DNA of 63,815 nt, the filler included, from Myxococcota bacterium (GTDB taxonomy: Bacteria > Myxococcota_C > UBA6777): NCBI GenBank assembly GCA_023150835.1. It is 4 parts of 4 records of this genome, joined end to end, with 100 filler letters (N's around TTAATTAATTAA, not from the genome) between each part and the next. Parts side by side here need not be neighbours in the genome. Positions count along the whole stretch, not along the records: positions 22,699 to 41,889 come from JAKLKB010000161.1; 3 more parts are not named here. One strand, 5' to 3'. Under the pieces are notes generated by a model that was given only the letters and a program-made list of their open reading frames with translations, was not told the DNA's origin and ran no database searches. Shown here one piece after another: positions 9,881 to 41,706 of this stretch. A program made the translations under genes and the position numbers. The first letter of the stretch is position 1. Each line of letters begins with the position of its first letter.

Positions 9881-9948
9881 GTAGGGGCAACCACAGGGCT
9901 ACAGCACATCGCGCCGGCGTTTTGATCGTACTTCTCTCGGATATCGTA
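9881..9948 (+). repeat. degenerate family A MITE half
   Basis: gtaggggcaacc ... cggatatcgta followed by TGA. Confidence 0.6.
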
Positions 9949-12250: not shown

Positions 12251-12307
12251 CACTCCCCTTATGAAGATGGGCGGGATTTTGGCGGTGGATGACGAAAGGG
12301 GCGATGG

Positions 12308-20417: not shown

Positions 20418-20714
20418 GTGTTGATCGGCCCGAATGCTTCGGGGAAGTCAACCTATCTCGAAGTCCTCGATCTTCTCTCTTCTGCGGCCAACGGCTTTTT
20501 TGGGGAGGCTCTGCAAAGAAGAGGAGGGTTTCGATCGGTTTATTCGGCGTATGAAACGTCGCCCCAAAGTGATGATCGAGATGTTTCTGTGTGCGTTCAC
20601 GCAGTTTCCTCGCGTTCCGAGTGTCTCGTTGTTGTCGCGGTTGCCCGATCTTGTTCATATCGCTCAGGAGATCAATCGTTTGAGCGAAGTGTCTTGAGGG
20701 ACTCGGAAATCTAA
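20418..20714 (+). pseudogene. remnant of an AAA_21/AbiEii-like ATPase (Walker A only)
   Basis: VLIGPNASGKSTYLEVLDLL..ALQRRGGFRSV, then loses protein-like character. No Walker B. Confidence 0.65.
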
Positions 20715-21658: not shown

Positions 21659-21692
21659 TTGCGTCTCGCATCGGTTTGGGTGGCGTTTCGTG

Positions 21693-22547
21693 TTAGGGGG
21701 AGCGGCGGTGGAAGTTGTATCGGACGTCTTTGACGCGAAGGCGTGTGTAGACGAAGGGGCCTGTTTTGAGGCTCCATGCGACTTCGACCTGTGTGGGGAT
21801 CTGGATGCCTTGAAAGGCTTTGTAGTGGCTGGCGTCACCGAACCAATGGCGTTGTTGGTTGGCATCACGAAAGCGCAAGCCATCGACGCGAGTGAGTTGC
21901 CCTTTTGGATCGACGTGGAGGGTGAGATCGGCGCTGGCGTATTTTCCGAGGAAGGTGAGTTTTGCGCGCTGGTGATCGATCGGTTTCCAGCGTAGATGGG
22001 GATTTTGTAGGAAAGAAGTGGGGAACCACATCATCTCGGCGAGGTAGCGCATGAGTGCGCCTTGATCGATATCAGGCCCCTTGGCATCGGCGATATCAAA
22101 GGAAGAGAGCAGACGAATCCACATGGAGCCGCGCCCATCGCGGTAATGATCGCGTGCATCGAGCCAAAACAAGGTCGAAGCCTGCGCACGGGCAACCCAC
22201 AAAAAGGCGGGTGGATCGATGCTAAAGTATTGGAGGGCCGTCAGCGGCATCCAAGCTTGGTGAGGGTCGGTGCGGATTACGCCTTGTTGCGTCAGGTAGA
22301 CGCTTTCGATCAACGGTGTGCCTTCAGGGATCGCGTAGCGCAGATAACGTTGGATCGGCGGTGGCAACGAAGTGAGCATTGAAGCATGAAAACGCCCTTG
22401 AATCGGCCTGATCTGGTTGATAAAGCTGTGCGTTTCGCGGTTGATCTGGCTTTGGTGCTGCGCGTTGCCCCACGTGATCCAAGTGGCCAAGATCCCCAAA
22501 CACACAAGAACAAAAAGCACAAGCACAAGCACAATGCGTTTCCACAT
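21693..22547 (-). CDS. membrane-anchored DUF6920/DUF6544-like protein
   Basis: N-terminal TM, LPPPIQRYLRYA, ALMRYLAEMMWFPT. Confidence 0.75.
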   Translation of the reverse strand: MWKRIVLVLVLFVLVCLGILATWITWGNAQHQSQINRETHSFINQIRPIQGRFHASMLTSLPPPIQRYLRYAIPEGTPLIESVYLTQQGVIRTDPHQAWMPLTALQYFSIDPPAFLWVARAQASTLFWLDARDHYRDGRGSMWIRLLSSFDIADAKGPDIDQGALMRYLAEMMWFPTSFLQNPHLRWKPIDHQRAKLTFLGKYASADLTLHVDPKGQLTRVDGLRFRDANQQRHWFGDASHYKAFQGIQIPTQVEVAWSLKTGPFVYTRLRVKDVRYNFHRRSP

Positions 22548-22915: not shown

Positions 22916-24106
22916 CTAAGGCGCTGTGTGGTACAGCACGGTCGCACGACTGCGTTGTACTGGGGCGTTGGGGTGCGGGATCTGTTGAAAACTGGTTTTG
23001 GGTTTGTCAGTGTTCTCGGCTTTTTCAGGAGCGACTCCAACGCGAGTAGCAAAGAAGATCACCGACAAGACAAGCAATCCACCGCCGGCCCCTACGATGC
23101 CATAGCCGATGCGTTCTTCGCCGGCGTGTTGGTTCCATTTGTTGGTGAGGTCTCGTTGGCTGAGGCTATGCGAATCAGGAGCATTCGCTTGGGTTTTAAC
23201 GGACTGAAAGCCCGAATTGGCACCCGCAAGCAACACAGCCCCTGTCACACCGGCGGCAACACCAAGAGCCAACAACGTCCATCCCGGCCAACTTTTGACC
23301 CAAGGTCGTTCGCCGACTTCGGTCGGACCCGAAGCGCCTTGAACGAGGACCACCGAGAGACTCTCGGCTTGTTCGGGAGAGACACTGACTTGGCGATTGA
23401 CTGATTGGTAGCCGGGGTATTTGATCTGCACAACATGCGAGCCGATGGGGATCTTGAGGTTTTCAAGCGGTGTTTTACCCCAAGAACGACCGTCGATCTC
23501 GACATCCGCGCCGCTTGGGGTGCTGGTGACGGAAAGCTGGCCTGTGACGGGCTGCAAGGTAAAGGTCATCCGCAGTTCTGCACCACCGACAACGTTGATC
23601 CCTTGGACGATCTTGGCGTGGTTGGGGTGAGAGAGCTCGATCTTGTGTTCACCTGCATCCAAGGGCAATGGACGAAGCGGCGCGGTTCCCACGACTTTGC
23701 CGTTGATCGATACGGTGGCTCCAGAGGGCGAGATCAACAGGTTGAGTGTGCCTTTGGAAAGCGTTGTTTTGAGAAAAGCGATCTTGCTTTCAAAGCGGGC
23801 TTTGAGGACGGCGGGGGGATTTTCGTTGATCCCACGCTCGGAGGCTTGGAGGGCTTCACGATAACGCTTAAGCGCCTCAAGACATTTGACGATGGCGAAG
23901 GTGATCTTTGGATTGGCCCAGAGTGTGTGCGCTTGGGTGTAAAGGCCGAGAGCCTTTTCGTAGTCTCCTTTGTCGTAGGCGACAGCGGCATCGGCGCTCA
24001 GTTTGACGACTTTTTTGGCGTCCTCTTCGGAGGGGTTGTTTTGGGCCAAGACAGGGAAAGCCCCAAACAGAAAACATCCCAACACAAAAGAAATTACATA
24101 CTTCAA
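22916..24106 (-). CDS. secreted TPR + tandem PEGA domain protein with C-terminal hydrophobic segments
   Basis: Signal peptide; PSGATVSING..GTAPL and STPSGADVEIDG..GKTPL. Confidence 0.9.
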   Translation of the reverse strand: MKYVISFVLGCFLFGAFPVLAQNNPSEEDAKKVVKLSADAAVAYDKGDYEKALGLYTQAHTLWANPKITFAIVKCLEALKRYREALQASERGINENPPAVLKARFESKIAFLKTTLSKGTLNLLISPSGATVSINGKVVGTAPLRPLPLDAGEHKIELSHPNHAKIVQGINVVGGAELRMTFTLQPVTGQLSVTSTPSGADVEIDGRSWGKTPLENLKIPIGSHVVQIKYPGYQSVNRQVSVSPEQAESLSVVLVQGASGPTEVGERPWVKSWPGWTLLALGVAAGVTGAVLLAGANSGFQSVKTQANAPDSHSLSQRDLTNKWNQHAGEERIGYGIVGAGGGLLVLSVIFFATRVGVAPEKAENTDKPKTSFQQIPHPNAPVQRSRATVLYHTAP

Positions 24107-24126: not shown

Positions 24127-26115
24127 TTAAGGGACTTCGATGTTGATTTCGCGCAGTCGAACATTGTAAGATTTACGATTCGCTTTCGCAGGGATGACGA
24201 GTTTTGCAGAAAAGAAACCACCGCGCTTGATCTGCAAAGTCATGGGCTGATGGTTCGGCTTCTTGACAGTCAAGGGAGTTTTGCCAAGGGCTTCTCCGTC
24301 AGTTCCAAGCACCGTTGCTCCAGACGGAGAAGACGTCACACGAATCTCGGTATAGCGAGACTTTTTGCGCGGAAACTTTCGAGGATGGCTCCGAACTGTC
24401 GGAGGTACGGGCCGATCTTCGACTTCGCGGTGCGGGGGGGTAGGACGATCGGTGGTCTCGCGGCGCGGGGTGGGTTCTGTGCGGCGTTCTGGGGTGGGTT
24501 CTGTGCGGCGTTCTGGGGTGGGTTCTGTGCGGCGTTCTGGGGTGGTATTGCGTTGCGCAGGAGCAGCGCCACGCTGCGCAGGATTGGGCGTGTTGGGCGT
24601 GGCATCACGGGGGTTTGTGGGTGCATGAGCCGAAGCTACAGTTGTTCCTTTGGTGGGCTGGTCTGGTTTGGTCGAAGAAAACCACCAGACGCCAAGCAAC
24701 AACACGGGGATCGCCAAAAAGATCGAGGCTTTGCCATAAACGCTGCCAAAGAATCCGCTGCGTTGGGGGCTAAAGGTGGTGCTACCGCTGAAGCTATTGC
24801 TTTTGAGTTCGTTTTCGATGGACTTGAGTTGTTCGAATACTTCTTCGGCGGTGGGACGGCGTTTTGGGTCTTGTGCAGTCATGCGTTCATACAACGAACG
24901 CAGCGTTGGTGGGATCTCCAGATTTTTCGGTAGATGAACGCCTTTTCCTGTGATGCGGCTGATGCGCACCATATCTTGAGAAGCATCCCCAAAGGGTTTT
25001 TCGCCTGTGAGCATATAATACAAGATCAGACCGATCGAGAAGATATCCGCAGGATACGAGACTTCTTTGGGAGAAGTGATCTGTTCGGGAGCCATATAAC
25101 GCGGCGTCCCCAGAACGACGCCTTGGCGTGTGAGATCGGATTCTTCGGGCCCGTCAGCAAATTTGACCACACCAAAGTCAAAGATCTTCACAAAGTCGTC
25201 ATGACCTTTGAGGTGCAACAACATAATGTTAGAAGGCTTGAGATCACGGTGGATCAGGCCGCTGGCGTGGGCTTCCATCAACGATTGCGCGATCTGTTTG
25301 GTGATATGGACGGCGCGCTCGGTGTCAAAGGCTTCGCCTTTTTTAAGGATCTGGTTGAGGTTGGTGCCTTCGACAAACTCCATCACAAGGTAGGGTTCGC
25401 CCCATTGGCTGACGTTGTAGTCGTAGACACGGACGGTATGGGGACTCGACAGCAGCGTCGATGCCTTGGCTTCGCGCACGAAACGGCGGCGTGATTCTTC
25501 GTTGCTGAGGGTGCCGGGGGCGATCACTTTGATGGCAACTTGTTTTCCGAGCTTGGTATGGGCGGCTCCGTACACGATACCCATGCCGCCTTCGGCGATC
25601 TTGTGAGTGATGCGATATTTGTTGTCGAGAACAGAGCCGACGCTCGTAAACGCGGGGCGTTTGTTTTCGAGAGGCAGATCCACTTCGGAAGCGTCTTCAA
25701 AGCGTTGGATGCGGTTAAAGATCGAATCATCATTGGGGGGTCGAAGGCCGCTCAAGCTATTGATCGACATCGACATCGAAGAATCGCTGCTTGGGGGAGG
25801 CGAAAAGTCTTCGGGGTTGGAAGACAGAGAAGCCGACTCGTCTTCGAGTTCTTTGAGATCGGCAAGGTGGTTGGGTTTCGATGAAGACGAGCGAAACTCC
25901 ACAGGCAAAATGTCGGGTGGGGCATCGCTGTTTTGGTTGTCTTTCCACGCAGCGATGGAGTCTTTGGTGTTCATGGATGGCGTGGATGCTCCGTTGGTTG
26001 GGGGAGAGGCGGCGTTCTCCGCAGAAGAAGACAGCGCGGTACGCTCAGCAGCCTCTTCGCTGGATGGACTGACTTCGCTTTTGATTTGGTTTGCTTTGCC
26101 TTCTTTTTCGTTCAT
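24127..26115 (-). CDS. membrane Ser/Thr protein kinase with C-terminal PEGA domain
   Basis: AEGGMG, VAIK, HRDLKPSN, DFG, GTPRYMAPE, TM, PTPERRTE repeats and SSPSGATV..GKTPL. Confidence 0.95.
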   Translation of the reverse strand: MNEKEGKANQIKSEVSPSSEEAAERTALSSSAENAASPPTNGASTPSMNTKDSIAAWKDNQNSDAPPDILPVEFRSSSSKPNHLADLKELEDESASLSSNPEDFSPPPSSDSSMSMSINSLSGLRPPNDDSIFNRIQRFEDASEVDLPLENKRPAFTSVGSVLDNKYRITHKIAEGGMGIVYGAAHTKLGKQVAIKVIAPGTLSNEESRRRFVREAKASTLLSSPHTVRVYDYNVSQWGEPYLVMEFVEGTNLNQILKKGEAFDTERAVHITKQIAQSLMEAHASGLIHRDLKPSNIMLLHLKGHDDFVKIFDFGVVKFADGPEESDLTRQGVVLGTPRYMAPEQITSPKEVSYPADIFSIGLILYYMLTGEKPFGDASQDMVRISRITGKGVHLPKNLEIPPTLRSLYERMTAQDPKRRPTAEEVFEQLKSIENELKSNSFSGSTTFSPQRSGFFGSVYGKASIFLAIPVLLLGVWWFSSTKPDQPTKGTTVASAHAPTNPRDATPNTPNPAQRGAAPAQRNTTPERRTEPTPERRTEPTPERRTEPTPRRETTDRPTPPHREVEDRPVPPTVRSHPRKFPRKKSRYTEIRVTSSPSGATVLGTDGEALGKTPLTVKKPNHQPMTLQIKRGGFFSAKLVIPAKANRKSYNVRLREINIEVP

Positions 26116-26443
26116 CGCAGATGCCTTTTGTGATGGGCGTGGAGTCCGAGCAAGACCGAATCCTCGGGTTCCTATCGCAACATGCCTTGTCGCATCCCTC
26201 GCATTGTATTCTCAAACTGTGATGCGGGTCAACAATACCGTTTCAACAGTCTGCTTGTTTGCATGATGCTTCTTCCCCAAAGAAAATAAAACCGACCACC
26301 ACAAACGGCTGCGTATTTTTGGATGAAAAGCCTATTTTTTATTTCAAATAGGTTATTTTATTTCAATTGGGTTCAGGGAGTAAAAGAAAAAACAATGTAA
26401 AGGAAAAATAGCTGAGGCGGGGATAGAAAAAACATAAGATCTT

Positions 26444-28141
26444 TCAGGCAGGAAGAAGCCAATCAAGCAGCTTAAAGACGATCGCCAACAGCAGCAAACC
26501 GTGCAAGCCGACAAACAGCGCATACGCCAAACGAGGCGAGCGATCAATAAAGTGAAGCACCGAAAAAACAGTACGTTTCATCAGCGTGGTCGGGCATTGG
26601 ATGGGGAAATAACCGCTATGGATTTTTGCAAGAGCGTCCAACATCTCTTTGGCCGACTGAAAGCGTTCCTCGGGGTGCTTGCGCATCCCCTTTGAGAGGA
26701 AATGCGCCACTTCGATCGGGGTGTTGGGCTGTGCTGGATGGCGCAGGACAAACACCGAACGCGGTTCTTCTTTGGCGACGGCAAAAAGGATCTCAAAGAG
26801 GCTTTCTTTGTTGCCGAGATAGTGTTGAAGGGAAAGGAATTCGTAGAAGACCACGCACAAGCTGTACAGATCGCTGCGTGTATCGATGCGATCGTTGAGT
26901 CCAAGCGCTTGCTCGGGGGACATATACATCGGCGTGCCGATCAATCGGTTGTTTTGGGTTTGGAGATGTAGCTGTTCGGAAAGATGCTTGCGATCTTGTT
27001 CGAGCGCATGGGCAAGTTCATCCATTGAGTCAGATGTCGCCGATGTCGCCGATGTCGCCGATGTCTGCGATGTCTGCGATGTCTGCGATGCCTGCGATGC
27101 CTGCGATGCCTGCGATGCCTGCGATGTCTGCGATGTCTGCGATGTCTGCGATGTCTGCGATGCCTGCGATGTCTGCGATACCTGCGCTGCTTGTGATGTT
27201 AAGGATGCTGTGTTCGATGGGGCGGACGAGTTGATGCGTTTGGCGATGCCCCAGTCCATGACAAGGACTTCAAAGTGGGGGCCGATCATGATGTTGGCGG
27301 GTTTGAGGTCACGGTGCAAGATGCCCTGAGCATGGGCAAAATCGATGGCTTTGAGGATATCGATCAAGATCTGGAGGCGTTGCGTGAGCGGAAAACGGGC
27401 ATGATAGGCGGGATCGCCCGAACGGAGTTTGTCGATGATATCTTCGAGGGTTTCGCCTTGGACGTACTTCATCACAAAGTAGTAGCATCCGTCTTTATCG
27501 AGGCCGACATCGTGGATTGGGACGATATTTGGATGTTCCAATTGTCCGACGATACGGACTTCTTCGGCAAAGCGAACGACGGGTGCGGTGGTGTGGAGTT
27601 CGGACTTTAGGCGCTTGATCGCGACCATGCGTTGGATGTCTTTGTCGAAGGCGAGGTCGACTTCTCCCATCGCGCCGCTGCCAAGCGAACGCTTGCTTTG
27701 GTAGCGTTCTTGTCCGTCGATCACCAGTTGAGGCGCTGCTGAATCAGACGACTTTTGTAAGCGCGGAAGGATGGTGGTTCGGAGTCCTTGTAGTCGGATC
27801 TGCTGTAGTTCTACCGAAGATGTACGGATGCCAAGACTGTAAATTCCCGAGGGTGCGGGAGATCGCGTTGCCAAGGAAAGATCGCCTTCGCTGTCGAAAG
27901 GGGAGTGAGATTGGCTCGTTGCCCTTGCATCGTCTGCGAAGGTTCTCTCAGCCTCGGCAGACAGGGCATTTGCAGCCTCGGCAGACAGGGCGTTTGCGGA
28001 GTCGCAAGCAAGGACATTTGCAGAGTCGGCAAAGAGGTAGGCAAAGGGATCAAGGGCGGGGTTGTCGTCAAGGGAAGTCGCAAAACCGAGGGCAGGAGAC
28101 CCCAAAGATGCGGTCTGTTGGGCGGATTCTTGTTTGGTCAT
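26444..28141 (-). CDS. Ser/Thr protein kinase with low-complexity insert and C-terminal TM
   Basis: GSGAMG, VAIK, HRDLKPAN, DWG, GTPMYMSPE. Confidence 0.93.
   Translation of the reverse strand: MTKQESAQQTASLGSPALGFATSLDDNPALDPFAYLFADSANVLACDSANALSAEAANALSAEAERTFADDARATSQSHSPFDSEGDLSLATRSPAPSGIYSLGIRTSSVELQQIRLQGLRTTILPRLQKSSDSAAPQLVIDGQERYQSKRSLGSGAMGEVDLAFDKDIQRMVAIKRLKSELHTTAPVVRFAEEVRIVGQLEHPNIVPIHDVGLDKDGCYYFVMKYVQGETLEDIIDKLRSGDPAYHARFPLTQRLQILIDILKAIDFAHAQGILHRDLKPANIMIGPHFEVLVMDWGIAKRINSSAPSNTASLTSQAAQVSQTSQASQTSQTSQTSQTSQASQASQASQASQTSQTSQTSATSATSATSDSMDELAHALEQDRKHLSEQLHLQTQNNRLIGTPMYMSPEQALGLNDRIDTRSDLYSLCVVFYEFLSLQHYLGNKESLFEILFAVAKEEPRSVFVLRHPAQPNTPIEVAHFLSKGMRKHPEERFQSAKEMLDALAKIHSGYFPIQCPTTLMKRTVFSVLHFIDRSPRLAYALFVGLHGLLLLAIVFKLLDWLLPA
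27033..27179. repeat. 9-bp coding microsatellite (SQT/SQA/SAT)
   Basis: gatg(t/c)ctgc and gatgtcgcc units. Confidence 0.95.
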
Positions 28142-28248
28142 TACGCACTCCCGACAACAAAAGAAAGAAGGTATCGGAAAACGTACCTAAGATGCACAAA
28201 ACACGAATCCGTTGCTGCTCGGAAAAAGATAGCCGTGAAATTGTTGCA

Positions 28249-28620
28249 AAAAAGCCGTGTTCGCAGCACTTCAAGCGGCAGGGATATTTGTTTGAGAAAC
28301 GAACACTCAGAGGGTGTTTGCGAAAAAGGTTTGCTATGGAGAGAAGGTGGTTGGATCCGCGATGTTCTGACCCCTCACTTCTTGGGCAGCCACAGGGGGC
28401 TGCCCCTACGTTTTACGATAACTCAACGAGCGGATCTCGTATAAGAGGGTGTCTAAAGCAGCGATATCTGTTGGAAGCGTACACATACGGGAGCGATCCG
28501 TAGCCAAAAAAGCCGTGTTCGCAAGCGTTCAAGCGAGAGAGCTGTTGGCTTTGAAAAACGCTGGCTAGACTATTCGGTGTTTCCACCTTAACAAGGCGCG
28601 TATGGGGTAGCCCCCCCCAC
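28249..28620. repeat. repeat cluster: two module-C copies, a family A half (28380-28441) and a family B fragment
   Basis: aaaagccgtgttcgca..ttcaagcg at 28249 and 28506; gggcagccacagggggctgcccctac..cggatctcgta-TAA; tttccaccttaacaaggcgcgtatgggg. Confidence 0.8.
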
Positions 28621-28650
28621 AACACAAGCCCAACTGCGCTCGGTAGAAGC

Positions 28651-29724
28651 TCAAAAACCGTTAACAGGTACACGCAACTGGAGATCGGCGTATGGCAAAG
28701 AAAACGGCTTGACTTTCCATTGCCTGAGGCGCCAACACAAACACCAGTACAGCTTTGCGTTGGCTTTGATGTGGGCGGGGCTGGTATGGCGGCGGATACC
28801 GACCTTGCCATCGGGGTACAAGCGCAAAGCAAGAGATAACGCCCCCAATGACGATGGGAATTGCAGCTTACGAAAACACGGAACCAAGCGCTTTTTGTGT
28901 TCTTCGATCTGCTTTCCGATCTCGATCGCTCCTGCAAGATCCGTCATCCCCCATTCGGCAGGGATCGAGAGCCAACCTTTCTTACGCGAGATTTGATGCA
29001 ACAAGGATCGTAAAGCACCGATATGCCGATCGATAGAGCGTCCACGCGGTTGTTCAAACAATTGCCCGTCACGAAACAGCACCCACTCGCCTTTGTGAAC
29101 CGCTGCAAACGTAGCCTCTTCGGGTGTTTTCATTGCACGCAACAAGAAGCGATCGTGAGGCCCCCAAAAAGAAACCTGCACCAACGATCGCTCTGGATCG
29201 AAACCCAAAGACCCGCTACAACGGTCCTCTTCACGTTCCGCATGACCCGCTCCACCACCCGATCGGTTTTTTTGAGATCCCTTTACGAGCGCGGGTTTGT
29301 TTTTTGCTGTGTCTGCCTTGGCTGACGGTGCTTCTTCACGACAGCGCGTTTTTTGCAGCCCCCAAAAAGCCCCCAACACCGCGTGGATCTCTTTGGTATC
29401 GATCAGCATCACTTCCGTCTCTTGTTCCTTTGGTTGGCGCGACACCCACCACTCTTTACCCTGCCTTATGATCGTAAAGATCTGCTGCGCTTTGCCTTGC
29501 CCCCAAACCACTTGTATCCGTTGCGTCCCCTCCAGATCCACACGCAAGGTTCCTGCTTGATGAGAAGAAACTTGCGGAAGCAAGGCCAGAACCGAAGTCC
29601 GCAACAGCTCTGCCTTCGACAATCGCGGCAAAGAGGGTTCAGGCGCGATACTTGGCTGGCACCCCAACAACAACAACCCCATCCCACACAAACCTCGTAT
29701 CATCCGAGACTTCGCTTTGCGCAT
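28651..29724 (-). CDS. lipoprotein, C-terminal AgmX/PglI (TonB-C-like) domain possible
   Basis: Lipobox LLLLGC; C-terminal LVPCF..G.LSL.L.L.PDGKV...C......WK...P. Confidence 0.65.
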   Translation of the reverse strand: MRKAKSRMIRGLCGMGLLLLGCQPSIAPEPSLPRLSKAELLRTSVLALLPQVSSHQAGTLRVDLEGTQRIQVVWGQGKAQQIFTIIRQGKEWWVSRQPKEQETEVMLIDTKEIHAVLGAFWGLQKTRCREEAPSAKADTAKNKPALVKGSQKNRSGGGAGHAEREEDRCSGSLGFDPERSLVQVSFWGPHDRFLLRAMKTPEEATFAAVHKGEWVLFRDGQLFEQPRGRSIDRHIGALRSLLHQISRKKGWLSIPAEWGMTDLAGAIEIGKQIEEHKKRLVPCFRKLQFPSSLGALSLALRLYPDGKVGIRRHTSPAHIKANAKLYWCLCWRLRQWKVKPFSLPYADLQLRVPVNGF

Positions 29725-29976
29725 CTTGCTTGCTCCCTACTCTTGACAAAACACTCGCCGACCCATTCCTGAACCTGCTATCCACAACTTCTTTTTCAAC
29801 AAAACACCCGTCCATTCGGGCCTTTCCCACCCTACCACGCCCACACACAAAGGCAAAAAATCCTCCTCACGTTGCCAAAAAGGCCAACGCTCCGCCATAC
29901 TCGCTGCGTTCCAAAGAGATGCGGCGAACATCAAGGGTTCGTTGCTTCAAACCACCGATACACAAGGGCTTTGCTT

Positions 29977-30822
29977 ATGCCGATGTCGCTCGTCTTGTGG
30001 CTTTCCGAACAGATATCACTTCTCAAACAACTCCCCCGCACAGGTTGGTTGCATCGCGGTGTGCCACAACCTGAATCCGTTGCATCCCACAGTTACGGCG
30101 TGATCTTTTGGACATGGTGGTTGGTGTATCGCGCTCAACAACGCGGGGTATCGCCTTTGCCTGACCTCCAAACAGCCCTATTGCTCGCCCTGTTGCACGA
30201 TCTCCCCGAAGCTGGAACGGGTGACTTGGTGCCTCGCCAACGCCGCCTGCTTTTTGGTGATGACAAAAACACCCGAAACAACGCCATCCGCACCGCCGAA
30301 GCCCGCTTTTGGCAAGAAGCGCCCTCCCCTCCAAATTCTCCACCCATCCCCACCCACCCACTCTCCCTTTCCGAACAAGATGCCCACTCAGCCGCTTCGG
30401 AATCTTCACGCTCTCCCATCTCCGAGCAAGATGCCCACTCGACCGCTTCGGAATCTTCACGCTCTCCCATCTCCGAGCAAGATGCCCACTCGACCGCTTC
30501 GGAATCTTCACGCTCTCCCATCTCCGAGCAAGATGCCTACTCGACCGCTTCGGAATCTTCACGCTCTCCCACCCTCGAACGCGATCTCGCTCAATTCATC
30601 GACAACGCCCACCAACGCTGGCAAACACTTCAAAACACCGAAACACCCGAGTCTCGCATCGTCAAACAAGCCGACAAATTGGATTGCTTGCTCCAAGCCT
30701 TGTTCTACTACCAAAAAGGCTACCCCCAAGCCCAAGACTTCGCCCGTTTGATCGATGACGCCGCTGGAGACGACGACGAACTCCGCACACAACTCCACCA
30801 AGCTTGGCATCACTCCCTCTAG
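29977..30822 (+). CDS. HD-domain hydrolase (YfbR/HDDC2-like 5'-deoxynucleotidase) with repeat insert
   Basis: LKQLPRTGW, ESVASHS, LLHDLPEA.TGD, VKQADKLD. Confidence 0.88.
   Translation: MPMSLVLWLSEQISLLKQLPRTGWLHRGVPQPESVASHSYGVIFWTWWLVYRAQQRGVSPLPDLQTALLLALLHDLPEAGTGDLVPRQRRLLFGDDKNTRNNAIRTAEARFWQEAPSPPNSPPIPTHPLSLSEQDAHSAASESSRSPISEQDAHSTASESSRSPISEQDAHSTASESSRSPISEQDAYSTASESSRSPTLERDLAQFIDNAHQRWQTLQNTETPESRIVKQADKLDCLLQALFYYQKGYPQAQDFARLIDDAAGDDDELRTQLHQAWHHSL
30370..30571. repeat. 51-bp coding tandem repeat x4 (SEQDAHSTASESSRSPI)
   Basis: Units start at 30370, 30421, 30472 and 30523. Confidence 0.95.
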
Positions 30823-30825
30823 CCC

Positions 30826-31176
30826 CGCCTCTTCCGTCTCTTCCGTCTCTTCCGTCTCTTCCGTCTCTTCCGTCTCTTCCGTCTCTTCCGTCTCTTCTGT
30901 CTCTTCTGTCTCTTCCGTCTCTTCTGTCTCTTCTGTCTCTTCCGTCTCTTCCGTCTCTTCCGCCTCTTCCGCCTCTTCCGCCTCTTCCGTCTCTTCCGCC
31001 TCTTCCGTCTCTTCCGTCTCTTCCGTCTCTTCCGTCTCTTCCGCCTCTTTCGTCTCTTTCGTCTCTTCCGTCTCTTCCGTCTCTTCCGTCTCTTCCGTCT
31101 CTTCCGTCTCTTCCGTCTCTTCCGCCTCTTTCGTCTCTTTCGTCTCTTCTTTCCGTGTTTTCCGTGTTTTCCGTGG
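30826..31176. repeat. about 350-bp intergenic 9-bp microsatellite (tcttccgtc)n
   Basis: Directly visible; ends in ttccgtgtt variants. Confidence 0.97.
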
Positions 31177-31311
31177 ACTCTTCTTGTGGATCAAAGACGC
31201 TTTGGGATATCCTGCGAGGTGTATGCGTCCAACCTACCGTTTTCTCCCCAACAAGCCCGCATACGCTGTTGTCCCCAAACCTGCGCTTGGTACGGCGCGA
31301 AGGAGGTTCTT

Positions 31312-32112
31312 TTGAGTCGCCTTACAACTGTTTCCTTGGTGTTTGCTACGTTTCTTTTGGCTCCTTCTGCGTGGGGATGGGATTATCGCCCGGATCCACG
31401 CGATCCACAAAATTGCATGATGCGTTGCCGTCAAGCCTGCCAAACCCACTACACCCGCCAATGTCAAACACGCACCGTTTGGCGTACCGAGTGCCGTGAC
31501 TACGTCAATTGGCAGACCCAATGCCGCGATTACACCCGTTGGCAGACCCAATGCCGTGATTACACCACGTGGCAAACACAATGCCGCAACTACCGCACTC
31601 TCCAAACGCGATGCGCCCAATATCCCGCCGTCCGCCAACGCTGCCTTCGGATCGGTTGGCACACCGCCTTTTGCCGCAACTATCACCATATGCGTACACA
31701 ATGCCGCGAGTACGTCACCCTTCAACGTCGCTGCACACAAGTCCCGCAACAAAGCCGCCGCTGCGCCAGCGTACCCCAACGCTATCAACATTGCACTCGC
31801 GTCCCCCAACGCCACCGCCGCTGCGCCAACGTACCCCAACAACAACAGATCTGCTTTAACGTCCCCAAAACCTACTGCAACAACCAGTGCCAAACCCGTT
31901 GCCAACAACCCGCTCCCCCTCCCGTCTCTCCCGCCCCCGCCATCCACCCACGATGCGCCAAATTCTACCACCGTTGGCAAAGATACCGCCACCGCTACGT
32001 CGACTCGGGACACCCCAAACATCGCCGCAAAGCCAAGAAAAACAAACGTCGCTACTTCCGCTGCCTTGAATGGGTGCGCAACAACCCCAACGACGAAGGC
32101 GACGATTTTTAA
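31312..32112 (+). CDS. secreted Cys-ladder repeat protein
   Basis: AGGAGG at 31301 then TTG 31312; signal peptide (..APSAWG); Cys every 10 residues. Confidence 0.8.
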   Translation: MSRLTTVSLVFATFLLAPSAWGWDYRPDPRDPQNCMMRCRQACQTHYTRQCQTRTVWRTECRDYVNWQTQCRDYTRWQTQCRDYTTWQTQCRNYRTLQTRCAQYPAVRQRCLRIGWHTAFCRNYHHMRTQCREYVTLQRRCTQVPQQSRRCASVPQRYQHCTRVPQRHRRCANVPQQQQICFNVPKTYCNNQCQTRCQQPAPPPVSPAPAIHPRCAKFYHRWQRYRHRYVDSGHPKHRRKAKKNKRRYFRCLEWVRNNPNDEGDDF

Positions 32113-32246
32113 TCTCCAAAAACCCCACCAAAATCGATCTGAATCTTTGCACCCTCCTTCCGTCTGAGTAGCCGCTGGCCTTCATCCTTGACCCCCCCCC
32201 ACGCATCGGCCACACCCTATCCCCTACACATAAAGGAGACTCATCC

Positions 32247-33236
32247 ATGCACAAGATATCTTCGGTTGCCCTCTTTGTCGGACTTACAGCACTTTGCGTA
32301 TCCGATGCCTACGCACAACAGTTCAACCCACCCCGCCCTTCGACGAACATCAACGTGCGCCGTGTCGCCCAACAAGCCCAAAACTACCGTTCCGAAGCAA
32401 ACCGCCTTGATTCGACCTGCAACAGCACCCAACGCATCGCCAATCGATACCAACAAGACGCCCGTCGCTTCGCCTTATCCGCACAACGAACGCCCAAAGT
32501 CCGCGCCCACTACAAACGCCTCGAAGTCCAAAGCTACCAACTCGCTCAACGCTATCAACGCTTGCTCACCGTCTGCCGCCAACAACAAGTCCGACTCCGC
32601 CAAGCCGCCTCACAGATCACCCAAAGACCCAATCTCGTCCCCCAAAAAGAACGAGAGATCGGCAACACTCGCCGCCACTTCGACGAACAACTGCGCCAAG
32701 CCTTCCAACAACGCAACCAGTTCACCCAGATCTCCCGCTCGACGCTCGATCAAATCCAACGCGAAACCACGCGTGGTTTCCATATCCCCGGCTCTCCCAT
32801 CCCCTCATCTCGCCAACCTGCACCCCGCCCCGGTACTCCCCCTAGCCACACAGGTTTCGGCAAGCCTTCCTCCCCAAACACCGGCATCCGCGCCGTCAAG
32901 ATCGAAAGCTTCTCGATCTCTCGCCTTGATATCAACGCACCTTCCTCTTATCAAAGCCGACTCAGTGGTCAGATCCGCAGCCAAGAAAGCGTGCTGCGCC
33001 GCTGTTATCAAAACGAATTAAGCGCCCTAAAATCCGCGACATCGGGTCAGTTTGCCTTTTCCTTCCAACTCCGACCCGACGGACGCACCACCTCCAACCG
33101 TATCGTGCGTTGGCCCTCCGAAAGCTTCCGCGCTGCTGTCTGTATGCGCAATATCCTCAACAACACCACCTTCCCACTCCCCCCCAATAGCGCCGTCGTG
33201 GTCGGCATGGAGATCTTCGTCCGTACATCCAACTAA
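32247..33236 (+). CDS. secreted coiled-coil protein with C-terminal AgmX/PglI-like domain
   Basis: AAGGAG RBS, signal peptide (AYA-Q), LRRCYQNEL..SGQFAFSFQLRPDG..CMRNIL...FP.P. Confidence 0.8.
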   Translation: MHKISSVALFVGLTALCVSDAYAQQFNPPRPSTNINVRRVAQQAQNYRSEANRLDSTCNSTQRIANRYQQDARRFALSAQRTPKVRAHYKRLEVQSYQLAQRYQRLLTVCRQQQVRLRQAASQITQRPNLVPQKEREIGNTRRHFDEQLRQAFQQRNQFTQISRSTLDQIQRETTRGFHIPGSPIPSSRQPAPRPGTPPSHTGFGKPSSPNTGIRAVKIESFSISRLDINAPSSYQSRLSGQIRSQESVLRRCYQNELSALKSATSGQFAFSFQLRPDGRTTSNRIVRWPSESFRAAVCMRNILNNTTFPLPPNSAVVVGMEIFVRTSN

Positions 33237-33349
33237 TACGATATCCGAGTGATCTGTGATCGAAGGAGAGCGCGTAGACGCCCGATTGTTGGGCAGCCAC
33301 ACCTGTCTGCCCCTACATTTTTACGATCACGCAACGGGCGGATCTCGCA
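33237..33349 (-). mobile_element. MITE-like repeat family A copy
   Basis: TAA-tacgatatccg ... cggatctcgca-TAA; abuts the upstream stop codon. Confidence 0.85.
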
Positions 33350-33437
33350 TAAGTTCTGCGATCGAAAAAATCATCGCTTTTGCGGTGTGGGGAGGCATCC
33401 CCGGACAGTTCGATAGGATCGGACAGTTCGGTCGGTT

Positions 33438-35078
33438 TTAAGAGGTGGGGAAGGATTGTTTGTAGGTTTTGTCGAGCAACACTTTTTCGTTGTCGGCCTG
33501 AATGAATTCGACGCGGACTTCATCCTTGATGGGATCGAACGTCAAGAAGGTTGCGGTGTTTTCACCATGAAAGAAATCGAATTGTTTGGCGGGGGCCAAG
33601 AGGTCGCGGTTTTCGGGCTGGGCTTGGTACACTCCCCACAAGACGCTGGAGTTTCCGCCCGGTCCCGCCAAGATCTCCCATGTCCCGTTCATCGGACCTG
33701 ACGTATCCACCCGTGTCACCGCGCCCACATGAAAGTCACCGCTGACAAACCACACGTTGCGGATCTTGTTTTGCACGATATGATCAAACAACGCTTTTCG
33801 TTGAGTCTTGTAACCTTCCCATCGATCCGCCGCCATCACATCCCAAAGATCGGGGAAATCTGTGATCGGAACGGAGTTCAGCAGCACCTTGAAGTGACAA
33901 GGGCTTTTTTGAATGCCCTCTTTCAACCAAGCAAACTGCGCAGCCCCCATATACACCGCATTGTCCGTCCCGTACGTCGTGATATCCCGTTCGGTGCGGC
34001 AGTCCAACAAGAAGATCTCCGCCACGTCGCCCCAACGGTAGCTCCGCCACAAACGCTTGTTGTCTGCGGGATCTTGGGCCACATGCTCAAAATAAGCCGC
34101 ACGCGCCGTATCAAAAAAGATCGGCGTTTTTCCTTTGTAAAGCTCGTTGTTGTCGGTGTATTCGTGATCATCCCACACCGCATACGTGCCTGTACTCGAA
34201 AAAATCTCTGGATAACCCGGCAATTTCAACGTCCGACGCCACTTTGCGCGAAACTCTTCTTTGGTGTTGGCCCCATCGTTGTAAGACATATCGCCGAGGT
34301 GACAAAAGATATCGGCTTTGCGCTTCGCCATGATGTTGAGCGCAGGGAAGCTTTGATATTTTCCTGCATTCGTGCAAGCGGTGGCGGCCATCACAAGGGG
34401 CTGCAAACAACCTTCTGGAAAAGCTGTGCGAAAACGCCCGATCCGTGTGCGATCCGAAAAAGCATCGCTTGTGCCCGAAAAAAACGCATAAAAGTATTCT
34501 TGGTTGGGGACGAGATCTTTGACCGCTTGATGGAGATACCCTTCTTTCGGGGTCACACTTTGCTCAAAGACCAGCCACACCGAACCTGCTTTTTGGGAGG
34601 CTCGCCACACCCGCAGCGTCCGAGGTTGATCATCGCCTGCAAAGGTCCACAGCAGCGCCCCTTGCATCGTCACGCTGCCCGCTTGCACACCAAAAATGTA
34701 TCGTGCGTTGTCTTCTTTGATGGTCTCTGGAGCGAAGCTGATCTCTTTGGCCTTGTCTTGGGTCGGATCGGTCTTGCACTTGGCTTGGGCTTGGCGGATG
34801 CGTTCTTCTTCGAGGCGGCGCTTTTCTTCTTCTTCTTTGCGCTTGACGTCTTCGGGATTGACGCACGCCACCCCCAAAGACAACGCCACCGCAGAAGCCG
34901 CGCCCATCCTCAAAAAGTCCCGCCGACTCAGATCTCGCCGCTCACTTTCCGTTTCCCTTCTGGCACCCTCCACCAACGCCTCTTCGGGATTTGTTGGGTT
35001 TGATGCGAGCGATTCATGCGCATTCGCAGGCATTTTCGCCACGCTCTTGTTTTTGCGATTGTTTTTTTTCTCAGCCAT
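33438..35078 (-). CDS. phoD: alkaline phosphatase D family, Tat-exported lipoprotein
   Basis: SRRDFLR Tat motif, LGVAC lipobox, HLGDMSY.D, WDDHE, LLDCR, SGDFH. Confidence 0.9.
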   Translation of the reverse strand: MAEKKNNRKNKSVAKMPANAHESLASNPTNPEEALVEGARRETESERRDLSRRDFLRMGAASAVALSLGVACVNPEDVKRKEEEEKRRLEEERIRQAQAKCKTDPTQDKAKEISFAPETIKEDNARYIFGVQAGSVTMQGALLWTFAGDDQPRTLRVWRASQKAGSVWLVFEQSVTPKEGYLHQAVKDLVPNQEYFYAFFSGTSDAFSDRTRIGRFRTAFPEGCLQPLVMAATACTNAGKYQSFPALNIMAKRKADIFCHLGDMSYNDGANTKEEFRAKWRRTLKLPGYPEIFSSTGTYAVWDDHEYTDNNELYKGKTPIFFDTARAAYFEHVAQDPADNKRLWRSYRWGDVAEIFLLDCRTERDITTYGTDNAVYMGAAQFAWLKEGIQKSPCHFKVLLNSVPITDFPDLWDVMAADRWEGYKTQRKALFDHIVQNKIRNVWFVSGDFHVGAVTRVDTSGPMNGTWEILAGPGGNSSVLWGVYQAQPENRDLLAPAKQFDFFHGENTATFLTFDPIKDEVRVEFIQADNEKVLLDKTYKQSFPTS

Positions 35079-39374: not shown

Positions 39375-41504
39375 CTAAAAGGGCGTGCCGTCGGCCTTGG
39401 TCCCGGGCGAATAGGCCCCCACAGCGCCCGTCATCGTGCTGTGTTGTGTGCAGGTTGCGGGGGTGAGATCAGGGGAGCGGTTCACCGATTGATCATTTGC
39501 ACCGTTGCAAGGGGCTGCGGCGGTGTAGGCAAAGGAATCGATCGTGATCCCTGTGGCGTTTTGGAGGTTCACCGTAGCCCCGCTGTTGGACAAGACGAGT
39601 GCGATGCTGGCGACGTAGACAAGGGCGTTTCCAAAGTTGGAATGTGGCATCCCTGTGTTGACTTGGGGGTCAGCCGCCATCCCGCCGCTAAAGATTACGA
39701 TGGCTTTGCCGCTCGCCATAGCGAGTCCTTTGGGGAAGGTGTGTTTGAGCGTTGTACCCACAAGCAGTTTGACGCCCGATAGATCGAGCGTTTTTCCGCT
39801 GACATTCACGATCTCCACAAACTCATCTTGTGTGGAACTGATCGTACCGTCTTTGTTGACATCGCTGGTGGTCGAAGGATCGGCCAAGACTTCGTTGATC
39901 AGGATATCGCCCGCAGCAGGGAGAGCACCGACGGGTTCGGGGGTCACTTCGGGTTGGGGTTCAGGCTGAGGTTCGTTTCCACCGTCTGCGGGCGGCTCAG
40001 CGATCGGCTCGGCGATCGGCTCGGGATCAGGATCGGAAAACAAGCGGCCATCGATCCGCGTCCCGGGTGAAAACAACGTACCGCTGGCGACCTCGGAATG
40101 TTTCGCACAGGCCCCCTTGGTTTCGGGGAAAAGCGTCACCGATTGATTGATATCATCGCCCACATTGCAGGAGGTCGATGCACCGTAAGCAAAAGAGGCG
40201 ATCGAAGTTCCTGTGCCATCCTTCAAAGCGATCACCGCACCACCGTTGGTCAAAGGAATCGATGCGGTAAAGACCATCGCTCCGCTGAATTTGGGGTGCG
40301 GCATCCCTGTATTGATCTGGTTATCGCCCACCATCCCGCCGCCAAAGATCACCACAACGCCACGTGGCTCGATCGCGATCCCCGCAGGGAAAGTAAACTT
40401 ATCACTACCACTCACGGTCAACACAATGCCCGATAAATCGAGCTTTTGTGCAGAGATGTTCACGATCTCCACAAATTCGTCTTGGGTCGCGCTGGTTGTG
40501 CCGTCTTTGTTGGCGTCTCCTGTTGTGCCTGTGGGAGGATCGAACAGGACTTCGTTGATCACAAGATCGCCCGCTGCTGGTTTCGGAAGCAGCGGTTGTT
40601 CCGAAGAAGGCTCGCCACCATCCGTCATCTCAGAGCTGGTCTCGACTGGAGGATCTTTAAACAACGTACCGTCTGCGCGGGTGCCCGGGGAAAACAACAA
40701 GCCCGACGAAGAAGCGCGGGTGTGACGAGTGCAAAGACCTGCGGGCGCTTCGGGAGAGCGGGTCAACGATTGGTTGACCGCAGTTCCACTCAAACAGTCG
40801 CCTTGACCGTACGCAAAGGTGTCTAGCTCCTGCCCGTTTGCATCAAACAGCCCCAACGTTCGGGGATCTGTCACCAACCCCGATGAGGCGCGATAGACCA
40901 ACGCACCGCTGAACTTTGAATGGCCTTTGCCTGTGCCGACTTCGTTATCGCCTGTCATTCCGCCACCAAAGATCACAAGGGCTGTCCGTGCAGGAAGCAC
41001 CGCCGACGGAAGTGTAAACAGAACAGCATCGTTGACCTTCAACACAACGCCCGTCACATCGAGCGATTTGTCTGTGTGGTTGACGATCTCAACGAAGTCA
41101 TCTTGGGTGGCATCGCGCTTTCCGTCTTTGTTGGCGTCGCCTGCGAGATCATCGGGCGGATCGAACAAGACTTCGTTGATGAACAGATCGCCTTTGACGG
41201 GTTTGTCGGCGGTCGGGGTCTCGGGCGTAGGTTCGGGTAGCACGCCCTCGGGCAAAGGCTCGGTCGGCGTCGTCTCGCTACCTGTTCCGTCTGTGTTGGG
41301 CTCGATCGGTGGGATATCGGGATTGTTGGTCTCGCTGCCATCGGGCTTTGTGTCCACAACACACTTGCCTTCAATACAAACTTGCCCACCCGCGCAATCC
41401 AACGCTGTACGACAGGTCGGGCCACACCCCACCCCATACAAAAGCCAACCCACCACCCCCAAGATCCCCACAACAGAAAACACACGCGACTGCAAACGAG
41501 ACAT
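39375..41504 (-). CDS. lipoprotein with three lamin-tail-like domains
   Basis: Lipobox GVGC, a Cys knot, and three repeats GD..INEVL.DP..D.NKDG....QD.FVEIVN..SPGT..DG. Confidence 0.88.
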   Translation of the reverse strand: MSRLQSRVFSVVGILGVVGWLLYGVGCGPTCRTALDCAGGQVCIEGKCVVDTKPDGSETNNPDIPPIEPNTDGTGSETTPTEPLPEGVLPEPTPETPTADKPVKGDLFINEVLFDPPDDLAGDANKDGKRDATQDDFVEIVNHTDKSLDVTGVVLKVNDAVLFTLPSAVLPARTALVIFGGGMTGDNEVGTGKGHSKFSGALVYRASSGLVTDPRTLGLFDANGQELDTFAYGQGDCLSGTAVNQSLTRSPEAPAGLCTRHTRASSSGLLFSPGTRADGTLFKDPPVETSSEMTDGGEPSSEQPLLPKPAAGDLVINEVLFDPPTGTTGDANKDGTTSATQDEFVEIVNISAQKLDLSGIVLTVSGSDKFTFPAGIAIEPRGVVVIFGGGMVGDNQINTGMPHPKFSGAMVFTASIPLTNGGAVIALKDGTGTSIASFAYGASTSCNVGDDINQSVTLFPETKGACAKHSEVASGTLFSPGTRIDGRLFSDPDPEPIAEPIAEPPADGGNEPQPEPQPEVTPEPVGALPAAGDILINEVLADPSTTSDVNKDGTISSTQDEFVEIVNVSGKTLDLSGVKLLVGTTLKHTFPKGLAMASGKAIVIFSGGMAADPQVNTGMPHSNFGNALVYVASIALVLSNSGATVNLQNATGITIDSFAYTAAAPCNGANDQSVNRSPDLTPATCTQHSTMTGAVGAYSPGTKADGTPF

Positions 41505-41706
41505 CCTTGCCGGTTTCTCAACACACAAGACGATTCCAAGATTCTTTCCTGTGAGGCCCTCACCGCCGCGCAAAGCTGAGAAACCGCCTCCTTCCTTGAT
41601 CTTTACGGAGCGACAAAAAGCCCCTAGATACGGGCTGTTGTTTCAGTCTCCAACCATACAGCGCACCGCATCTTCGGTCAAGGCGTATCCAATCAGATAG
41701 GAGTAA

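Follow-up and report, generated by a model that had tools for sequence, protein, structure and literature searches.

The window analysed here, a stretch of 63,815 nucleotides from an assembly of a Myxococcota bacterium (GCA_023150835.1), contains a gene for a protein that is predicted to be secreted and that carries 20 cysteine residues (Cys) in a mirror-symmetric array of spacings. The explanation of the whole that we consider best, and regard as probable, is that the protein is an exported and very basic rod, probably helical, whose two arms would run antiparallel, be joined by nested disulfides and bind polyanions. It is a member of an undescribed, multi-copy family found only in a small uncultured group related to Myxococcota, and literature searches of titles, abstracts and full texts yielded no account of a bacterial protein carrying a ladder of this kind.

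Translation of the gene places 22 Cys at residues 35, 39, 43 and 51, at every tenth residue from 61 to 181, and then at 189, 193, 197, 215 and 251. The numbers of residues between the first 20 of them are 3,3,7, thirteen 9s, 7,3,3, followed by 17 and 35 before the last two. A reading of the sequence alone, which preceded this analysis (the sequence-only reading), had claimed exactly this palindrome with its centre at C-LRIGWHTAF-C, and both claims were confirmed, the segment C111-C121 being the tenth of 19 gaps. The separate repeat motifs of the two arms, the Pro linker and the basic segment with two Cys, which the same reading had listed, are all present in the translation. The parts of the gene are as follows, with the ten-residue repeat units of the arms called decads:

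31300..31306, plus strand: ribosome-binding site AAGGAGG, 5 nt 5' of the TTG start codon
31312..32112, plus strand: coding sequence of the Cys-ladder protein, 266 aa and the stop codon (translation; dN/dS and RNA-library contigs)
31312..31377, plus strand: predicted Sec-type signal peptide, residues 1-22, with an Arg n-region, a hydrophobic core and the cleavage motif A-W-G (A-x-G), recognised by eye, with a presumed cleavage site
31378..31413, plus strand: N-terminal lead of the mature chain, WDYRPDPRDPQN, kept in the window-type ortholog L012
31414..31644, plus strand: N arm, C35-C111, 10 Cys with gaps 3,3,7,9x6 and the decad consensus C-[KR]-[DNT]-Y-T-x-W-x-T-[QR]-C
31645..31671, plus strand: apex loop LRIGWHTAF, from C111 to C121, with the motif R-[ILV]-G-W conserved in relatives
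31672..31902, plus strand: C arm, C121-C197, 10 Cys with gaps 9x6,7,3,3 and the decad consensus C-x-[RK]-[VY]-P-x-x-Y-x-[RK]-C
31903..31953, plus strand: Pro-rich linker, QQPAPPPVSPAPAIHPR, with a predicted local distance difference test score (pLDDT) below 50 for residues 202-207
31954..32064, plus strand: predicted basic helix-turn-helix, C215-C251, with a net charge of +14 and its two Cys 35 residues apart
32065..32109, plus strand: acidic C-terminal tail, LEWVRNNPNDEGDDF, with a net charge of -4 (sequence)

The consensus sequences were derived from 31 N-arm and 36 C-arm decads of five proteins. Thirteen consecutive gaps of nine residues form a plain tandem array with a period of 10 residues (30 nt in the DNA), and such a run is palindromic trivially. 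The informative parts of the pattern are the mirrored ends (3,3,7 and 7,3,3), the odd number of 9-gaps, which gives an even number of Cys, the differing motifs of the two arms and the behaviour of the homologs.

The frame 31312-32112 is under purifying selection and the gene is real. An ortholog with 93% identity lies in the syntenic locus L001, from a metagenome-assembled genome (MAG) titled 'Myxococcota bacterium'. Between the two genes 37 codons differ synonymously and 13 non-synonymously, the differences at the three codon positions number 11/4/39, and dN/dS is 0.026/0.257 (0.10). Since the selection acts in this frame, the long open reading frames (ORFs) in the other frames and on the opposite strand are by-products. 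The arrangement of AAGGAGG followed by a TTG start is likewise found in the orthologous loci L001 and L004.

The mature chain of 244 residues contains 41 Arg, 31 Gln, 22 Cys, 20 Thr and 18 Pro, together with 11 His. The isoelectric point is about 10 (9.8-11.1 across the five members for which it was computed), and beside the charges of the tail hairpin and the acidic end given above the two arms carry +10 and +13. Signal peptides with A-x-A-type sites were present in every family member read; at the place equivalent to the A-W-G of the window protein stand AWA (L001), ANA (L002), AQA (P0005) and AKA (P0017). The R-[ILV]-G-W apex recurs in L001, L003, L009, L012, L019, L020 and L021, and the CX35C spacing of the basic segment is kept in gene 1 of L003, in L012 and in the L003 paralog. 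The Pro-rich linker is 5 aa longer in L001. Acidic ends also recur in relatives, as poly-D (L003), GGGDEDDD (L012), NEEF (L019) and DEEF (L020), and the acidic tail may be a sorting, masking or cation-binding element. We also observed that the C-termini often finish with [DE][DE]F, as in GDDF of the window protein and in the two last-named relatives, the poly-Asp ends being those of L003 and L012.

To place the protein in a family, Pfam was scanned at E-values up to 10 and gave no family for the window protein; NCBIfam gave none either, and a search of PDB sequences found nothing relevant. A Pfam scan of seven members, again at E up to 10, identified no family, and CHCH and Tim10 were absent among the matches. 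The absence of a recognised family, as asserted by the sequence-only reading, is thus borne out for Pfam, NCBIfam and PDB sequences. A phmmer search against 1.84 billion representative proteins returned 15 proteins at E <= 0.001, of which four (P0002, P0004, P0005 and P0006) were accepted as relatives; P0003 and P0007-P0016 were rejected on reading as unrelated low-complexity repeat proteins. Word-indexed profile searches added one relative, P0017, and a further, longer search of this kind found nothing, which is weak evidence. Two of the relatives from the libraries are annotated by NCBI as 'hypothetical protein' of Myxococcales or Myxococcota MAGs.

Species-representative genomes gave three loci. 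A regular-expression scan of these loci revealed a paralog 7 kb from the L003 gene, and searches of the whole genomes behind them found two or three family genes in each. The protein libraries had missed these paralogs, so that 'rare' holds for those libraries only. The phylum-level group of genome G001 consists of only five genomes, and all five carry matches. A metagenome scan recovered copies of known loci only (L004, 98.9% identical to L001, and L005, identical to L003), and no second CX9C array is present within the 64-kb window. The set read for the family comprises 15 genes or proteins with 21 hairpin modules. We define the family here by a signal peptide, by a module with equal numbers of Cys in two arms of CX9C decads, by the motifs Y(+3)/W(+6) in the N arm and P(+4)/Y(+7) in the C arm, and by an apex that is either R-[ILV]-G-W or a knot of four Cys. 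The window protein shows all of these features, and they are common to members in all five genomes of the group.

Comparison of the members showed that the two arms vary as mirror images of each other. The Cys gaps of representative members are listed below, with slashes setting off the middle part of a module where it is given separately:

Window protein and L001: 3,3,7,9x13,7,3,3
L012, the window-type gene of genome G002: 3,3,7,9x15,7,3,3
L003 gene 1: 3,7,12,9x4 / 9 / 9x4,15,7,3
L003 paralog: 3,3,7,10,7,3,3, then 6, then 9x19
G003 C36, G004 C81, G004 C62 and G005 C481: 3,3,7,9x13 or 9x15,7,3,3, then a linker of 6-19, then 9x19
L002: 3,3,7,9x4 / 5,3,12,5,5 / 9x4,7,3,3, then 6, then 9x6 / 5,3,12,5,5 / 9x6
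L011 and L018: 7 + 4 + 7 Cys, with 3,3 at both ends
P0005: 12 + 4 + 12 Cys

Equal numbers of Cys in the two arms were found in 19 of the 21 modules, as 4+4, 7+7, 8+8, 10+10, 11+11 or 12+12. Twelve modules have a simple apex, and in every one of them the number of consecutive 9-gaps is odd (9, 13, 15 or 19), which means that decads change in pairs, the arms changing by the same number. Irregular gaps are mirrored as well: in L003 gene 1 a gap of 12 stands opposite a gap of 15, and in P0005 a gap of 12 in the N arm and a gap of 11 in the C arm are each the seventh step from the centre. The first module of the L003 paralog, with 3,3,7,10,7,3,3, is a minimal form of the same design.

The residues between the Cys follow the same symmetry. 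In the geometry of mirror pairing, position +k of an N-arm decad faces position +(10-k) of a C-arm decad; Y(+3) then faces Y(+7), and W(+6) faces P(+4). In a first set of six modules with 38 facing segments, Pro occurred in the N-arm segment only in 5 cases, in the C-arm segment only in 27, in neither in 6 and in both in none. Among the 31 rungs of this set with 9/9 gaps, Trp at N+6 was combined with Pro at C+4 in 21, both were missing from 9, and a single rung was mismatched; when the register was shifted by one or two rungs, the mismatches rose to 8-9. One internal rung of P0005 lacks both the Trp and the Pro, and at rung 1 the Pro is found in the N-arm decad of P0017 and in the facing C-arm decad of its ortholog L002. 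Seven modules that were found afterwards served as an out-of-sample test of the rung rules. Of their 42 rungs, 5 had Pro in the N arm alone, 32 in the C arm alone, 1 in both arms and 4 in neither; P(+4) occupied both arms in none of 34, and W(+6) of the N arm faced P(+4) of the C arm in 16 of 16. The divergent L003 paralog has just two C-arm decads that lack P(+4), and these are opposite its only two N-arm decads with P(+4). Such co-variation of rungs would be difficult to account for if the arms were not adjacent, antiparallel and in register. Together, the mirror rule, the mirrored gaps and the Trp/Pro rung rule make the nested pairing C1-C20 ... C10-C11 of two antiparallel arms, as the sequence-only reading had proposed it, well supported on sequence grounds.

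The secondary structure of the arms was predicted with AlphaFold2 for the window protein and for the L003 homolog, from family alignments of 7 and 6 rows. The model of the window protein (mean pLDDT 73.1) has helices at 32-114, a turn at 115-118 and helices at 119-198, with pLDDT of 83-88 for residues 71-150 and 67-77 for 151-200. Its N-arm helix is broken at or next to Cys71, Cys81, Cys91 and Cys101, its C arm is made of shorter, interrupted helices (pLDDT 67-87), and the Pro linker is disordered. The C-terminal basic segment is modelled as helices 216-232 and 235-257 with pLDDT of 83-91, as the sequence-only reading had anticipated in calling this segment helical. The L003 model (mean pLDDT 74.5) again has helical arms and a turn at 115-118; its helix breaks at 61-64 and 167-168 coincide with the mirrored gaps of 12 and 15, and its basic two-Cys C-terminal region reaches 94-95. 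Neither model contains any strand, and the pLDDT of the arms rises to 88-91. The hydrophobic moments of the C arms peak at 108 degrees, as in a helix. The beta-hairpin class that had been assigned from the sequence was not borne out by the two all-helical predictions and is weakened, with the composition of the arms still leaning towards beta. We consider the helical reading about three times as likely as the beta reading.

Foldseek searches of the window model against the PDB gave no match at E <= 0.001, and wide searches with VIA-align found generic helical hairpins only, at Z of up to 7.1 for the window model and 7.0 for the L003 model. The best structural matches align on residues ~77-153. 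No family assignment was drawn from the VIA-align matches.

Several observations weigh against a helical, strictly mirror-paired hairpin. P0004 and P0017 have 8+4+7 Cys, an odd total of 19. The sequence-only reading had asked for symmetric gain or loss of repeats and had named asymmetric Cys numbers as evidence against itself; symmetry was found in all modules except these two, where the numbers are indeed asymmetric. P0004 corresponds to the N arm of the first L002 module fused to the C arm of the second, and the centres of the two L002 modules are identical at 248 of 255 nt, which makes a recombinational deletion, or a collapse of short-read assembly between the near-identical centres, a plausible origin of the asymmetry. 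In P0005 the counts are equal, yet at the open end 3,3,7 is set against 9,9,9. Both arms have Pro at one rung of the L003 paralog, and the rung counts in general are not phylogenetically independent, many of the rungs being orthologous. As to the helices, the N-arm hydrophobic moments are equally strong at 180 and 108 degrees; Chou-Fasman averages of the arms lean weakly towards beta (Pb 1.02-1.11 vs Pa 0.89-0.99); the arms contain much Thr, Tyr, Trp and Val but little Ala, Leu and Glu; and Pro is present in 26 of 36 C-arm decads. By our own geometric reasoning, straight helices could not keep a period of 10 residues (3.33 residues per turn), so that kinks would be needed, as they are modelled. 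The Cys-to-Cys distances within the arms are all even (4, 8, 10), which would suit a beta strand too. The AlphaFold2 models were built on no more than 7 and 6 family sequences, with a pTM of 0.38, and the structural matches are at noise level (best Foldseek E 0.96, VIA Z <= 7.1). The neighbouring genes vary between members and are of no help on function.

Part of this evidence belongs to a rival that we consider unlikely, in which the same nested ladder would be a two-stranded antiparallel beta ribbon of about 25 nm, with the Cys and the Trp/Pro pairs on one face, at non-hydrogen-bonded sites, and the Tyr/Tyr pairs on the other. The even distances, the beta-leaning composition and the strong 180-degree moment of the N arms would all follow from it. 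N+6 and C+4, like N+3 and C+7, face each other exactly when the strands are antiparallel and in register, and a two-stranded ribbon would by our reasoning tolerate Pro at an even position, where the site is not hydrogen-bonded. Antimicrobial peptides that are small beta-hairpins with two disulfides are known from the excerpted text of PMC13001179, but no two-stranded ribbon of such length was found described in the literature searches. Two AlphaFold2 runs on different members produced helices and no strand, and the C arms peak at 108 and not at 180 degrees. Moreover, irregular gaps such as the CX12C of L003 and P0005 are odd and would flip the face of a strand, and the decads of the L003 paralog are helix-favouring (Glu, Lys, Met, Leu) and lack Trp.

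The remaining rivals each have a small probability. In one, decidedly improbable in our view, the Cys would be thiolate ligands on 10 levels of a monomer or of a four-helix-bundle dimer that binds or stores Cu(I), Zn or Cd outside the cytoplasm. Pairs of Cys on the same level would likewise explain the mirror symmetry, His is frequent in the mature chain and the habitat is wastewater sludge; helical copper storage proteins lined with Cys are known. In such metal-storage bundles, however, the Cys are much denser than the 10-residue spacing of the window protein, the Sec-type signal peptides imply export of an unfolded chain into an oxidising compartment, no metal-handling genes adjoin any member read, and Pfam and NCBIfam gave no metal-binding match. 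Marginally less probable again is a protein whose Cys form intermolecular cross-links, so that the basic repeats polymerise into an insoluble coat or matrix, as keratin-associated or spore-coat proteins do, with incidental or only partial mirror pairing within the chain. A Cys-rich, repetitive and very basic protein with several paralogs per genome would fit this, and the odd Cys numbers of P0004 and P0017 would leave a free thiol, but random linking needs neither equal arms (19 of 21 modules) nor mirrored gaps nor co-varying rungs, and the motifs of the arms are different and complementary. The slimmest chance is that of a solenoid or stack, or of local disulfides between neighbours in the sequence, with the palindrome as a by-product of a tandem repeat between similar caps. 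The thirteen 9-gaps are indeed a simple period-10 array, and in two-module proteins the second module is a pure 9x19 array that lacks special ends. Against this, the N half of every array has one motif and the C half another, with the change falling exactly at the centre, the R-[ILV]-G-W apex is conserved, the number of 9-gaps is always odd, the Trp/Pro and Pro-exclusion rules need the mirror register and degrade when it is shifted, and AlphaFold2 puts the sole turn at the centre.

On the favoured explanation, that of a basic antiparallel rod with nested disulfides, the protein would be exported by the Sec pathway and oxidised outside the cytoplasm. The mature chain would fold back at the conserved R-I-G-W apex, bringing the arms C35-C111 and C121-C197 together antiparallel and in register, and ten nested disulfides, predicted as C1-C20, C2-C19 and so on to C10-C11, would zip them into a rigid rod. 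Segmented alpha-helices are the most likely form of the arms, which would then measure about 11-12 nm, and the fold would be a hugely enlarged helix-loop-helix like those of alpha-hairpinins (CX3C) and twin-CX9C proteins. In each rung the Trp (+6) of the N arm would lie opposite the Pro (+4) of the C arm. Beyond the Pro-rich linker, a small basic helical hairpin would be closed by one CX35C disulfide, C215-C251 presumably forming a single staple, and the acidic tail would follow.

Such a rod would be expected to resist proteases and heat. Its surface, covered with Arg, Lys, Gln, Tyr and Trp, would most likely bind polyanions, such as lipopolysaccharide (LPS), exopolysaccharide, extracellular DNA, prey envelopes or the floc matrix. 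By analogy with alpha-hairpinins and beta-hairpin peptides the role could be that of a cationic antimicrobial, or it could be that of a stable scaffold or adhesive element, and we make no choice between them. We give about even chances to a more general statement: that these proteins are a modular family of disulfide-zipper rods, lineage-wide, multi-copy, expressed and secreted, with 4 to 12 nested cystines per module and one to two modules per chain, whose length evolves by mirror-paired decads with Trp on Pro in each rung, and which would serve as a very stable polycationic spacer, adhesive scaffold or weapon. Sequence, structure and literature searches found no protein with such a modular disulfide-zipper architecture.

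The stretch is almost completely present in public sequencing runs, with 16 rows containing at least half of its words. With a possible source study excluded, these rows are activated-sludge, wastewater, aquatic and unlabelled runs from five studies, and 4 of the 16 are metatranscriptome runs from one sample. A single RNA-library contig spans the Cys-ladder gene and the gene downstream of it (31237-33263 or 31295-33263, in 2 runs from one sample). We regard the RNA-library contigs as a positive hint of expression, not as proof of transcription. The depth of these contigs is ~55-58 over the gene pair vs 0-2.8 in the upstream bins 28806-30941; however, contig depth or missing cover cannot rank genes, and a tandem repeat at 30825-31149 would itself break assemblies, and for these reasons we claim neither a transcript start nor differential expression. 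Promoter and terminator scans of the region were at background level, and neither an Rfam scan of 28000-34000 nor a tRNA scan, which covered the whole window, gave a match there.

Two genes flank the Cys-ladder gene:

29872-30822, plus strand: HD-domain gene (HD_3/YfbR-like protein)
32247..33236, plus strand: downstream gene, 329 aa, co-oriented; context and not a conserved partner

Residues 242-322 of the downstream protein match NF033768, the C-terminal domain of AgmX/PglI (which we take to be GltJ and GltG, respectively), with 30.6 bits against a cut-off of 40 (E 2.8e-7). The protein is plausibly a distant relative of the TonB-CTD-like domains of GltG/GltJ, as these appear in the excerpted text of PMC11761067. 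The gene is kept after the L001 ortholog and absent after the window-type gene of G002. Of the AgmX/PglI-like, co-oriented neighbour announced by the sequence-only reading, the gene and its orientation are real, while the domain stays below the cut-off and the pairing does not extend to G002. No conserved partner gene was found among the family loci compared. The L002 genes are neighboured by an acyl-CoA dehydrogenase and a gamma-glutamyltranspeptidase, and those of L003 by a FecR-like protein and Cys-rich secreted proteins. Two of the latter, at 9311-9898 (plus strand, 195 aa) and 11009-12514 (plus strand, 501 aa) of L003, flank the family member and are secreted, Cys-rich and without a Pfam family; the 501-aa protein is built of repeated C...C..GY.C units, and a FecR-domain protein is encoded upstream. 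In L012 (G002 C23), an HNH-like Cys/His ORF at 2639-3289 (plus strand) lies directly downstream of the family member, in the place that the AgmX/PglI-like gene has in the window, and runs off the locus.

The upstream HD-domain gene is the sole neighbour common to the window, G001 and G002. Within it, 30361-30571 is a 51-bp unit repeated 4.2 times at 96% identity, which encodes a Ser/Glu/Asp-rich insert; the L001 ortholog, of 232 aa, lacks most of this insert. The spacer between the HD-domain and Cys-ladder genes contains the 9-bp unit CCGTCTCTT 36 times at 30825-31149 (and 31150-31175), and in L001 the array is missing and the spacer is ~220 nt shorter. Loose ends of RNA-library contigs fall at 31179. 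We further noted a dispersed intergenic repeat with a GC-rich inverted core, TTGGGCAGCCAC-N6-CTGCCCCTAC, and a conserved tail of ~35 nt, of which the window has 7 copies vs 0 expected:

8179-8206, minus strand: dispersed repeat copy
28382-28409, plus strand: dispersed repeat copy
33289-33316, plus strand: dispersed repeat copy
52491-52518, plus strand: dispersed repeat copy
61200-61227, plus strand: dispersed repeat copy
63601-63628, minus strand: dispersed repeat copy
63716-63743, minus strand: dispersed repeat copy

In the RNA-library contigs the sites of this repeat have a summed depth of ~550, with many joints and loose ends. The copies at 28382 and 33289, which lie in the part scanned with Rfam, had neither an Rfam nor a tRNA match; a REP-like element, a terminator and a small RNA are candidate identities for the repeat. 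Signalling and eukaryote-like domains are also abundant in the neighbourhood, in a C2-domain protein, a PEGA/TPR protein, two Ser/Thr kinases and a protein with three lamin-tail domains:

20711-21883, minus strand: signalling or eukaryote-like gene
22916-24106, minus strand: signalling or eukaryote-like gene
24127-28141, minus strand: signalling or eukaryote-like gene
39375-41573, minus strand: signalling or eukaryote-like gene

If the ladder is true, the protein would be by far the longest disulfide-stapled hairpin that we found described, with 10 cystines per module, and up to 12 Cys per arm in a relative, vs 2 or 3 cystines in the small peptides and domains built on this principle. Stapling of helices by CX3C and CX9C would then extend beyond plant defence peptides and proteins of the mitochondrial intermembrane space to bacteria, which would employ it in an oxidising extracytoplasmic compartment, enlarged by tandem repeats. 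The family would be a natural experiment in coupled repeat evolution, because both arms must change together, and a simple template for very stable protein rods of programmable length. It is also a conspicuous secreted family, with RNA-library contigs, in a wastewater lineage that is so far uncultured and functionally uncharacterised.

The nearest known systems, with 2-3 disulfides, are the alpha-hairpinins of plants and the twin CX9C and twin CX3C proteins. For the alpha-hairpinins, the 4C motif is given in the excerpted text of PMC7191063 as XnC1X3C2XnC3X3C4Xn, with the nested pairs C1-C4 and C2-C3, and their 6C motif in that of PMC11591084 as CX3CX3C-X4-20-CX3CX3C. Like the window protein as predicted here, they have two antiparallel arms with nested disulfides and are secreted and cationic. 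In the window protein the six outermost Cys reproduce exactly the CX3CX3C ... CX3CX3C spacing of the 6C motif, but 149 residues and 14 more Cys stand between the two halves, vs the 4-20 residues of the motif. The minimal module of the L003 paralog comes near the size of an alpha-hairpinin peptide. Plants produce alpha-hairpinins as short defence peptides of ~26-51 residues with 2-3 disulfides, and vicilin-like or multi-module precursors are often their source, whereas the window protein is bacterial, consists of a Sec signal peptide and 244 mature residues and has 10 predicted disulfides per module; no sequence relationship between them could be detected.

Twin CX9C and twin CX3C proteins, in the excerpts of PMC4571295 and PMC2064014, have antiparallel helices joined by parallel disulfides and fold oxidatively in the mitochondrial intermembrane space. 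With these and the alpha-hairpinins as analogues, CX3C and CX9C are classic spacings of disulfide-stapled helix-loop-helix folds (excerpts of PMC7191063, PMC11591084, PMC4571295 and PMC2064014), which would favour helices in the window protein. The twin CX9C (CHCH) and small Tim proteins resemble the window models in their helix-loop-helix, in the CX9C and CX3C spacings and in a periplasm-like compartment. They are eukaryotic, of 7-14 kDa, with one motif per helix and two disulfides, whereas the window protein has six consecutive CX9C per arm plus CX7C and two CX3C, or thirteen CX9C steps including the apex. The Trp/Pro rungs of its decads are absent from the descriptions of the CHCH domain in the excerpted sources.

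The beta-hairpin antimicrobials tachyplesin, gomesin and protegrin, and the cystine ladder of theta-defensins (excerpt of PMC13001179), are the analogue of the beta model. Like the window protein as predicted here, they are cationic hairpins rich in Arg and aromatic residues, with nested disulfides, but they are beta structures of 17-21 residues with 2-3 disulfides, and the window protein has 244 mature residues and is predicted to be helical. In overall shape the model resembles long helical hairpins without disulfides (the periplasmic adaptor proteins AcrA, MacA, EmrA and HlyD among others, ROP, and designed proteins), which align on residues ~73-156 around the apex with Z of 6.1-7.1, where Z below 8 is a level common for helical models. 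These have no sequence similarity to the window protein and are held by heptad hydrophobic cores, in contrast to its predicted cystines.

The principle of nested disulfides between antiparallel arms with CX3C and CX9C spacing is thus known, always with two or three cystines in the known cases, and the window protein, which differs from the alpha-hairpinins and twin-CX9C proteins in sequence, motif length, kingdom and architecture, plausibly works like them in structural terms and by analogy. What is new is a multi-copy family, restricted to one lineage and hitherto undescribed, in which the number of predicted nested cystines is unprecedented and the repeats evolve in mirror pairs.

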